Shown: positions 42,654 to 45,326 of the stretch, in pieces
Numbering within the stretch: position 1 is the stretch's first letter
How the letters are laid out: each line of letters opens with the position of its first letter
From: Escherichia coli
GTDB taxonomy: Bacteria > Pseudomonadota > Gammaproteobacteria > Enterobacterales > Enterobacteriaceae
Assembly: GCF_003334405.1 (NCBI RefSeq)
Contig: NZ_QOWM01000002.1
Direction: 5' to 3' (one strand)
DNA length: 64,000 nucleotides
The notes under the pieces: generated by a model
The model's input: the letters and a program-made list of their open reading frames with translations, nothing else
Database searches by the model: none
What the model was told of the DNA's origin: nothing
Program-made: the position numbers and the translations under genes

Positions 42654-45326
42654 ATGACAGATGTAACGATTAAAACGCTGGCCGCAGAGCGACAGACCTC
42701 CGTGGAACGCCTGGTACAGCAATTTGCTGATGCAGGTATCCGGAAGTCTGCTGACGACTCTGTGTCTGCACAAGAGAAACAGACTTTGATTGACCACCTG
42801 AATCAGAAAAATTCAGGCCCGGACAAATTGACGCTGCAACGTAAAACACGCAGCACCCTTAACATTCCTGGTACCGGTGGAAAAAGCAAATCGGTACAAA
42901 TCGAAGTCCGCAAGAAACGCACCTTTGTGAAACGCGATCCGCAAGAGGCTGAACGCCTTGCAGCGGAAGAGCAAGCGCAGCGTGAAGCGGAAGAGCAAGC
43001 CCGTCGTGAGGCAGAAGAATCGGCTAAACGCGAGGCGCAACAAAAAGCTGAACGTGAGGCCGCAGAACAAGCTAAGCGTGAAGCTGCTGAACAAGCGAAA
43101 CGTGAAGCTGCGGAAAAAGACAAAGTGAGCAATCAACAAGACGATATGACTAAAAACGCCCAGGCTGAAAAAGCCCGCCGTGAGCAGGAAGCTGCAGAGC
43201 TCAAGCGTAAAGCTGAAGAAGAAGCGCGTCGTAAACTCGAAGAAGAAGCACGTCGCGTTGCTGAAGAAGCACGTCGTATGGCGGAAGAAAACAAATGGAC
43301 TGATAACGCGGAACCGACTGAAGATTCCAGCGATTATCACGTCACTACTTCTCAACATGCTCGCCAGGCAGAAGACGAAAGCGATCGTGAAGTCGAAGGC
43401 GGCCGTGGCCGTGGTCGTAACGCGAAAGCAGCGCGTCCGAAGAAAGGCAACAAACACGCTGAATCAAAAGCTGATCGTGAAGAAGCACGCGCAGCAGTAC
43501 GTGGCGGTAAAGGCGGAAAACGTAAAGGTTCTTCGCTGCAGCAAGGCTTCCAGAAGCCTGCTCAGGCCGTTAACCGTGACGTTGTGATCGGCGAAACTAT
43601 CACCGTTGGCGAACTGGCGAACAAGATGGCGGTTAAAGGCTCTCAGGTCATCAAAGCGATGATGAAACTGGGCGCAATGGCAACCATCAACCAGGTTATC
43701 GATCAGGAAACCGCACAGCTGGTTGCTGAAGAGATGGGCCATAAAGTTATCCTGCGTCGTGAAAACGAGCTGGAAGAGGCGGTAATGAGCGACCGTGACA
43801 CGGGTGCTGCGGCTGAACCGCGCGCGCCGGTTGTGACCATCATGGGTCACGTTGACCACGGTAAAACCTCTCTGCTGGACTACATTCGTTCAACGAAAGT
43901 GGCCTCTGGCGAAGCGGGCGGCATTACCCAGCACATTGGTGCATACCACGTTGAAACTGAAAACGGCATGATCACCTTCCTGGACACCCCGGGGCACGCC
44001 GCGTTTACTTCAATGCGTGCTCGTGGTGCGCAGGCAACGGACATCGTAGTCCTGGTTGTTGCTGCCGACGACGGTGTGATGCCGCAGACCATCGAAGCAA
44101 TCCAGCACGCGAAAGCGGCGCAGGTACCGGTGGTGGTTGCAGTGAACAAGATCGATAAACCAGAAGCTGATCCGGATCGCGTTAAGAACGAACTCTCCCA
44201 GTACGGCATCCTGCCGGAAGAGTGGGGCGGTGAAAGCCAGTTCGTACACGTATCTGCGAAAGCGGGTACCGGTATCGATGAACTGCTGGACGCTATCCTG
44301 CTGCAGGCGGAAGTTCTGGAGCTGAAAGCGGTACGTAAAGGTATGGCGAGCGGTGCGGTTATCGAATCCTTCCTCGATAAAGGTCGTGGTCCGGTTGCTA
44401 CCGTTCTGGTACGTGAAGGTACTCTGCACAAGGGCGATATCGTTCTGTGTGGCTTCGAATACGGTCGTGTTCGTGCGATGCGTAACGAACTGGGTCAGGA
44501 AGTGCTGGAAGCGGGTCCGTCCATTCCGGTGGAAATCCTCGGCCTGTCCGGCGTACCGGCTGCGGGTGATGAAGTTACCGTTGTACGTGACGAGAAGAAA
44601 GCGCGTGAAGTTGCACTCTATCGTCAGGGTAAATTCCGCGAAGTTAAACTGGCGCGTCAGCAGAAATCTAAACTCGAGAACATGTTCGCCAACATGACCG
44701 AAGGCGAAGTTCACGAAGTGAATATCGTCCTGAAGGCAGACGTACAGGGTTCTGTCGAAGCGATCTCCGACTCCTTGCTGAAACTGTCTACTGACGAAGT
44801 TAAAGTGAAGATCATCGGTTCTGGCGTAGGTGGTATCACCGAAACCGACGCCACCCTGGCTGCGGCGTCCAACGCCATCCTGGTTGGCTTTAACGTACGT
44901 GCTGATGCCTCTGCACGTAAAGTGATTGAAGCGGAAAGCCTGGATCTGCGTTACTACTCCGTCATCTATAACCTGATTGACGAAGTGAAAGCGGCGATGA
45001 GCGGTATGCTGTCTCCGGAACTGAAACAGCAGATTATCGGTCTGGCGGAAGTTCGTGACGTGTTCAAATCGCCGAAATTTGGTGCCATCGCAGGCTGTAT
45101 GGTTACCGAAGGTGTGGTTAAACGTCACAACCCGATCCGCGTTCTGCGTGACAACGTGGTTATCTACGAAGGCGAGCTGGAGTCCCTGCGCCGCTTCAAA
45201 GATGACGTTAACGAAGTCCGTAACGGTATGGAATGTGGTATCGGCGTTAAGAACTACAACGACGTCCGCACTGGCGATGTGATCGAAGTATTCGAAATCA
45301 TCGAGATCCAACGTACCATTGCTTAA
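42654..45326 (+). CDS. infB: translation initiation factor IF-2
   Basis: 890 aa ORF; repetitive E/A/R/K-rich N-terminal region; G-domain [17 protein letters not shown]. Confidence 0.97.

Follow-up and report, generated by a model that had tools for sequence, protein, structure and literature searches.

The window, by which we mean the whole stretch of 64,000 nucleotides analysed, contained the infB gene on its plus strand. The gene and its primary start are as follows:

42654..45326, plus strand: infB CDS encoding IF2-1 (IF2-alpha), 890 aa (from the ORF list, K-12 annotation and identity, and TIGR00487)
42654, plus strand: primary ATG of infB, with the SD-like AGGAAGGA just before it

The first 747 nt (42654-43400) showed 100% identity with E. 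coli K-12 infB, and this segment was matched in 5,426 of 5,426 complete E. coli genomes, with infB as the annotated gene every time. The NCBIfam model TIGR00487 (IF-2, equivalog) gave the infB product 988 bits (cut-off 424) and covered residues 306-889; residues 1-305, including the repeat region, lie outside the coverage of this model. The K-12 identity and the TIGR00487 score confirmed the original prediction, which had named the gene infB. The K-12 gene order around infB is metY-rimP-nusA-infB-rbfA-truB-rpsO. From sequence identity, the locus is the 5′ third of an E. coli K-12-type infB, and no difference from K-12 infB was found in the sequence over the region, in codons 1, 158 and 165, or in the isoform masses. 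No RNA family match inside infB was revealed by an Rfam search of 42654-45326.

Besides the primary ATG, two internal start codons were located in the same frame, 21 nt apart:

43125..43127, plus strand: GTG, codon 158, start of IF2-2 (IF2-beta), 733 aa, 79.7 kDa
43146..43148, plus strand: ATG, codon 165, start of IF2-3 (IF2-beta'/gamma), 726 aa, 78.9 kDa

A GTG at 43125 as codon 158 and an ATG at codon 165 had been predicted as the known starts of shorter IF2 isoforms. Both codons were present exactly there, and published work agrees with this assignment: GUG158 and AUG165 have been named as the starts of IF2-2 and IF2-3 (PMC13245402), and positions 158 and 165 were also given for the internal starts elsewhere (PMC10486304). 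Madison et al. abolished the short IF2 forms through the mutations g474c and t494c (PMC3334882), which map onto both codons: g474c is the third base of codon 158 (43127 in the window) and t494c is the second base of codon 165 (43147). The isoform masses calculated from the window sequence were 97.3, 79.7 and 78.9 kDa, compared with 97.3, 79.7 and 78.8 kDa in the literature (PMC3334882). Initiating ribosomes were found at the infB internal site of E. coli by Ribo-RET, with retapamulin (10.1101/520783), and a Ribo-RET peak was also detected at this site in Salmonella (PMC11005335). N-terminal proteomics, which had been proposed as a check on the isoforms, is published already: in N-terminomics on formylated (initiator) N-termini, infB was among the genes with peptides for two or three in-frame starts (PMC13245402). 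Both IF2 size classes are required for optimal growth according to the literature. Codons 158 and 165 are already known, and have been for long, as the sites that make the shorter IF2 isoforms, and the initiation itself rests on the published experiments. Tandem (intracistronic) translation of IF2-1, IF2-2 and IF2-3 was reportedly described by Plumbridge in 1985, Nyengaard in 1991, Sacerdot in 1992 and Laursen in 2002.

Two repeat blocks were identified in this part of the gene:

42939..43130, plus strand: repeat block 1, eight 24-nt units, codons 96-159 (Tandem Repeats Finder, repeat search, codon shuffles and AlphaFold2)
43188..43289, plus strand: repeat block 2, made of 24-nt and 21-nt EEARR-type units, about residues 179-212, in the so-called domain II

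Block 1 has the consensus A-[A/E]-E-[Q/S/K]-A-[Q/R/K/E]-R-E with a period of 24 nt or 8 residues. Its units in register are PQEAERLA, AEEQAQRE, AEEQARRE, AEESAKRE, AQQKAERE, AAEQAKRE, AAEQAKRE and AAEKDKVS, that is, six well-formed units (42963-43106) with one degenerate unit flanking them at either end. Tandem Repeats Finder revealed period-24 arrays at 42962-43018 and 43005-43119, and a second set with periods of 24 and 21 at 43206-43289. In the repeat search, copies were spaced by exactly 24 nt from 42939 to 43115, and two further copies were located at 43188 and 43212. The nucleotide identity of block 1 was 0.67 at lag 24 and 0.60 at lag 48, while other multiples of 3 gave 0.40 or less; the amino-acid identity at lag 8 was 0.61. 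None of 20,000 codon shuffles of block 1 attained 0.67 at any lag (maximum 0.56). The (A)EEQA(Q/K)REA-type units that had been expected at about codons 100-160 were therefore borne out at codons 96-159, and the proposed self-comparison recovered the 24-nt periodicity.

The repetition of the underlying DNA, predicted to match that of the protein, is real as regards the period of 24 nt, but it barely exceeds what the protein imposes. When block 1 was resampled synonymously (same protein, the gene's own codon usage), the lag-24 identity was 0.63 ± 0.02, and 4.5% of the resampled sequences attained the observed 0.67. Of 34 pairs of identical residues one unit apart, 19 used one and the same codon (17 expected), and the DNA units were 65-70% identical to the reference copy. 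Block 1 DNA repetition is thus marginally above the level imposed by the protein repeat (0.67 versus 0.63). Because synonymous resampling nearly matches the observed DNA periodicity, the octapeptide repeat is considered old and kept at the protein level, with synonymous sites that have diverged.

The proposed comparison of repeat copy number between strains covered 5,426 E. coli genomes and relied on queries specific to each variant and on junction probes; copy number was almost fixed. The length of block 1 is nearly constant, with at least eight genomes among the 5,426 carrying an in-frame unit change, a count that is a lower bound. Six genomes contained 24 additional nucleotides (a third AAEQAKRE unit), and the corresponding protein, WP_000133053.1, was common to DETEC-S565 and O157 Al Ain; strain SY033 had two separate +24 events, and strain N68 had lost 96 nt, or four units. 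Block 2 variants comprised 34 records from about five strains (33 at 80-90% identity and one at 90-95%). Four of these records, from three strains, were shorter by 21 nt and one record was longer by 21 nt, and the other 29 were shorter by 24 nt; the latter represent a single clone, made up of CNR20191027, a clinical isolate, and 28 'Esc' records with genomes of almost equal size. As a side observation, the natural changes in domain II resemble laboratory lamotrigine-resistance deletions. All the unit changes in both blocks were in frame and left the internal starts intact. Extra units were found in some other genera, namely Kosakonia, Phytobacter, Mangrovibacter and Morganella.

That in-frame changes exist in block 1 (+24, twice +24 and -96 nt) and in block 2 (-21, +21 and -24 nt), and that lamotrigine-resistant mutants from the laboratory carry in-frame deletions or a duplication within domain II (PMC4371806; PMC10486304), might suggest a recent, slippage-prone VNTR or contingency locus, at which copy number tunes or switches IF2. 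We consider this very improbable. The similarity of the units (65-70% identity) does not exceed what the protein repeat calls for, block 1 variants number at least eight in 5,426 genomes, block 2 variation is mostly one clone (29 of 34 records), and the number of units is nearly constant across the genera of Enterobacterales. Furthermore, all length changes come in multiples of 3, which makes frame switching impossible. With divergent units and a polymorphism that is rare and wholly in frame, the locus does not belong to the VNTR or contingency class, and this explanation is largely refuted; the repeat is better read as an old one, kept at the protein level.

Two ORFs were listed on the opposite strand of this region:

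42803..43132, minus strand: spurious antisense ORF, 109 aa (ORF list)
42813..43457, minus strand: spurious antisense ORF, 214 aa, in the codon-aligned antisense frame (ORF list)

The original prediction had regarded both as spurious products of the repetitive DNA. They exist exactly at the predicted coordinates, and their length (109 and 214 aa) and start codons would be compatible with real overlapping antisense genes, an explanation to which we give almost no credence. A stop-free span as long or longer was present in 56% of synonymously resampled infB sequences for the first ORF and in 72% for the second. Stops were found in the homologous spans of 44 of 61 Enterobacterales species for the 109-aa ORF and 52 of 61 for the 214-aa ORF. 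Neither ORF had an NCBIfam match or a RefSeq annotation there, and each translates to a low-complexity sequence that mirrors the E/A/R/K repeat. Antisense ORFs of 489 and 571 aa, longer than either of these, lie opposite non-repetitive nusA and infB sequence. The spurious nature of the two ORFs was thus upheld by the resampling, the stops and the absence of a family match, but their cause is codon composition and not repetition. A stop on the minus strand corresponds to TTA, CTA or TCA on the plus strand, and no codon for Glu, Ala, Arg, Lys or Gln is one of these triplets, which keeps the antisense frames open; between 42654 and 43700 only two plus-strand TTA/CTA/TCA codons were present in the codon-aligned frame, at 42813 and 43464, and the 214-aa ORF extends about 330 nt past the repeat. 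An alternative-frame ORF on the plus strand (43180..43587) gave no family match and was treated as a further composition artefact.

For the protein encoded by the two blocks, AlphaFold2 with an 88-sequence alignment predicted one helix at residues 96-159 (pLDDT 77-87) and another at residues 165-216 (pLDDT about 80), with a short break between them:

43131..43145, plus strand: predicted break or hinge, codons 160-164 (NQQDD; AlphaFold2 pLDDT below 50, no helix)

The confidence of the helix model was moderate (pLDDT about 80, pTM 0.29). Charged residues make up 53-60% of each predicted helix, and 17 opposite-charge i/i+4 pairs were counted in helix 96-159 and 20 in helix 165-216. This model makes a single alpha-helix, long, charged and exposed to solvent, the most likely form of residues 96-159. 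A periodic stretch rich in Ala and charged residues, with a helix at residues 98-157, was reportedly described by Sacerdot in 1984 and, using NMR, by Laursen in 2004. ER/K-type single alpha-helices are charged spacer helices of the type present in myosin VI/X and caldesmon. The infB repeats share with them a long predicted isolated helix, more than 50% charged residues and many i/i+4 pairs, and differ from them in an atypically high alanine content (about 29%), a strict 8-residue period and a net charge of -5. The N-terminal region has been described as intrinsically disordered with some helical content (10.1101/2025.02.02.631968), and the dedicated solved structure 1ND9 covers residues 2-50 only.

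Domain I (residues 1-157) is reported to bind NusA through its N1 subdomain (PMC12297416). Helix 96-159 may be imagined as a spacer from this N1 subdomain to the remainder of IF2, followed after the short hinge by the second helix (165-216). Since the first helix ends at residue 159, the break covers 160-164 and the second helix begins at 165 in the AlphaFold2 model, GTG158 and ATG165 would flank the predicted hinge, one on each side. Of helix 1, only the last turn would remain in IF2-2, and IF2-3 would begin at the first residue of helix 2; block 2 is common to all three isoforms. Other genes with in-frame internal starts (clpB, mrcB, cheA and the alpha/beta infB of Bacillus subtilis) likewise give a full-length and an N-truncated protein from one ORF. 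In contrast to these, E. coli infB has two internal starts, 21 nt apart, and its site ends a helix encoded by a repeat.

Conservation of the internal site was examined in a scan of one genome per species, using a degenerate pattern for QQFADAGI[R/S]K (codons 22-31), which identified 107 infB loci. Ninety of the 107 could be aligned with the window, 60 from Enterobacterales and 30 from other Gammaproteobacteria; together with the window's own E. coli, the Enterobacterales set contained 61 sequences from about 25 named genera plus isolates and MAGs. The species sample is independent of the internal starts because the loci were picked through a motif 400 nt upstream of them; it consists of QQFADAGI[R/S]K-bearing genomes only and is phylogenetically non-independent. 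The region with the lowest synonymous diversity was the following:

43110..43136, plus strand: conserved internal initiation region, codons 153-161, GCGGAAAA-N6-AAA-GTG-AGCAAYCAA

This region is located within the last, degenerate unit of block 1. Its synonymous diversity was 0.047, against a mean of 0.36 over the first 395 codons of the 61 Enterobacterales, and the eight lowest of 354 nine-codon windows (0.047-0.12) all overlapped codon 158, with the primary start region ranking next. Zero synonymous diversity was found at A153 (GCG), E154 (GAA), K157 (AAA), V158, S159 (AGC) and Q161 (CAA), and the invariant core across Enterobacterales was GCGGAAAA-N6-AAA-GTG-A..A. Codon 158 was GTG in 59 of 61 sequences and TTG in the other two (Pantoea endophytica and Pantoea sp. 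RIT-PI-b), and it was always a start codon; the TTG changes Val to Leu and keeps the start potential. In 18 other conserved Val columns, GTG usage was 25%. Two of these control codons, 85 and 332, were almost invariant GTC and matched the invariance of codon 158, so that the invariance of codon 158 alone is not unique.

ATG165 was retained in 42 of 61 Enterobacterales and was not conserved beyond the core Enterobacteriaceae, codon 165 being GTA or CTA in many Pantoea/Erwinia and CAA in Mangrovibacter. Outside Enterobacterales, Photobacterium had GAT or GAC at the codon aligned to 158, and Rheinheimera had CTG, TTG or TTA; in this sample a conserved start at the codon-158 position was absent from Photobacterium, Rheinheimera, Alkalimonas and Aliagarivorans, and start conservation at E. 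coli infB codon 158 was found in Enterobacterales only. Within E. coli, the 71 nt that contain both starts (43100-43170) were identical in 5,298 of 5,426 genomes. Judged by these alignments, the internal site is constrained at the nucleotide level, beyond the amino acids, across Enterobacterales.

The short IF2 forms could also come from proteolysis of full-length IF2, with GTG158 and ATG165 as ordinary Val and Met codons, and the predicted flexible hinge near residues 158-165 would be protease-sensitive. We hold this to be extremely improbable, and published work refutes it: point mutations at both codons remove the short forms (PMC3334882), retapamulin-arrested initiating ribosomes are present at the internal site (10.1101/520783), and infB is one of the genes for which N-terminomics on formylated N-termini yielded peptides for two or three in-frame starts (PMC13245402). 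The nucleotide-level conservation across species, including the Val-to-Leu change that keeps a start codon, likewise argues against proteolysis and agrees with internal initiation.

Local folding was predicted for -200 to +1100 of infB (1,300 nt), and unpaired 25-mers were ranked. The first 300 infB codons contain nine in-frame ATG, GTG or TTG codons. The GTG158 window was at the 97th percentile of predicted unpaired probability and the ATG165 window at the 99.9th, and the remaining six internal in-frame NTG codons had far lower values. The most open predicted 25-mer among the 1,300 nt was 43131-43155, with ATG165 inside it. The anti-SD duplex was -3.5 kcal/mol for GTG158 versus -6.5 kcal/mol for the primary start; the SD-like element of GTG158 is an invariant GGA at 43112-43114, 10 nt upstream, and ATG165 has practically no SD.

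It is very probable that ribosomes at the primary ATG (42654) give IF2-1, and that independently loading ribosomes at GTG158 and ATG165 give IF2-2 and IF2-3. The internal entry site would be an A-rich, weakly structured mRNA with at most a weak SD, and we infer that loading proceeds through this weak SD together with the open mRNA. The title of a report by Laursen et al. accords with an A-rich open entry site with at most a weak SD. Both IF2-2 and IF2-3 lack domain I, which comprises the N1 subdomain, the linker and the first repeat helix.

Taken together, infB very probably produces three proteins from three starts on one mRNA, with a weak-SD, open internal site and with repeat helices maintained at the protein level. 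Cold-induced phase separation has been ascribed to the N-terminal disordered region and is lost in the beta isoform (10.1101/2025.02.02.631968), and lamotrigine targets domain II (PMC4371806; PMC10486304). We might speculate that the octapeptide helices are spacers of tunable length and that the rare natural alleles with altered unit number are functional, which is a rather unlikely proposal at present. The alleles concerned are +1, +2 and -4 units in domain I, and -7, +7 and -8 residues in domain II, with the -8 allele in CNR20191027 and its 28 derivatives. If the proposal is true, these alleles could affect how IF2-alpha couples to NusA, the condensation induced by cold, or the sensitivity to lamotrigine.

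Internal initiation in infB has been textbook material since the 1980s, and the finding therefore carries little weight as a discovery; it is useful as a positive control, in which a reading of the raw sequence placed both starts to the base. The additions made here are modest: the nucleotide conservation footprint, the starts that flank a predicted hinge and the catalogue of rare unit-number alleles. Studies of IF2 isoforms, of NusA coupling, or of cold adaptation and lamotrigine could draw on them.

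The second repeat block of infB, the EEARR-type units that encode part of domain II of IF2 (window 43188-43289, residues about 179-212), was found to vary naturally among E. coli genomes through in-frame changes of its units. The following length changes were recorded:

block 2, 24-nt deletion (8 residues): clinical isolate CNR20191027, together with 28 'Esc' records whose genome sizes are nearly identical (locus L113)
block 2, 21-nt deletion: three strains
block 2, 21-nt duplication: one strain

The gene carrying the 24-nt deletion is 2,649 nt long, and its protein is WP_032325647.1.

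Copy number also varied in block 1, the 24-nt tandem repeat at window 42939-43130, and such alleles were rare in E. coli (loci L002, L003, L111 and L112), with the tally of the following alleles to be read as a lower bound:

block 1, third AAEQAKRE unit: six E. coli genomes
block 1, two independent unit duplications: strain SY033
block 1, four-unit (96-nt) deletion: CSF isolate N68

At the start position of the IF2-2 isoform, aligned with window 43125-43127, TTG replaced GTG in Pantoea endophytica and Pantoea sp. RIT-PI-b (L094 and L108); the position still holds a start codon, although elongating ribosomes would insert Leu there instead of Val.

Upstream of the repeats, IF2 residues 58-92 (window 42825-42929), which are described in the literature as a flexible linker, were predicted by AlphaFold2 to form a beta-hairpin with strands 58-71 and 79-92 and pLDDT of 80-94. 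Residues T60, L61, R63, T68, L69, G76, E84, R86, K87 and T90 are invariant in this segment. Two Val codons were near-invariant among the 61 Enterobacterales, namely codon 85 (window 42906-42908; GTC in 60) and codon 332 (window 43647-43649; GTC in 59), whereas the other Val columns varied freely.

Within infB, we detected one ORF in another frame of the same strand:

43180-43587, plus strand, 135-aa ORF

The family search revealed no match for this ORF, and it looks like a further by-product of skewed codon composition.

The Rfam matches in the window were as follows:

7984-8091, minus strand, ArcZ
29736-29857, greA leader
36510-36593, tRNA
40379-40452, tRNA, at the position of the K-12 tRNA-Met gene upstream of rimP
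40544-40644, rimP leader
45343-45413, plus strand, naRNA4 (CssrE, a nucleoid-associated ncRNA; 68 bits), directly 3' of the infB stop
46926-47040, S15 leader
47270-47441, minus strand, SraG

Locus L018 (USCO01000192.1), a 3.5-kb low-coverage contig of an 'uncultured Clostridiales bacterium' MAG, contained the 5' end of infB with a premature stop, and residues 1-35 were the same as in E. coli; the contig is probably E. coli contamination in this MAG. In the 'complete' genome of Enterobacter sp. EA-1 (CP025776.1, L103), the infB frame is broken close to its 5' end, where an additional 'RPRV' segment and a premature stop occur; this suggests a pseudogene or errors in the assembly. Through the search of complete E. 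coli genomes, the infB 5' region was matched by one plasmid record, and some genomes contained up to five matching places.

In laboratory mutants resistant to lamotrigine, domain II either carries a short duplication or has lost 8 or 17 residues in frame (PMC4371806, PMC10486304). The natural block 2 alleles resemble these mutations in kind, both being in-frame and both located in domain II.
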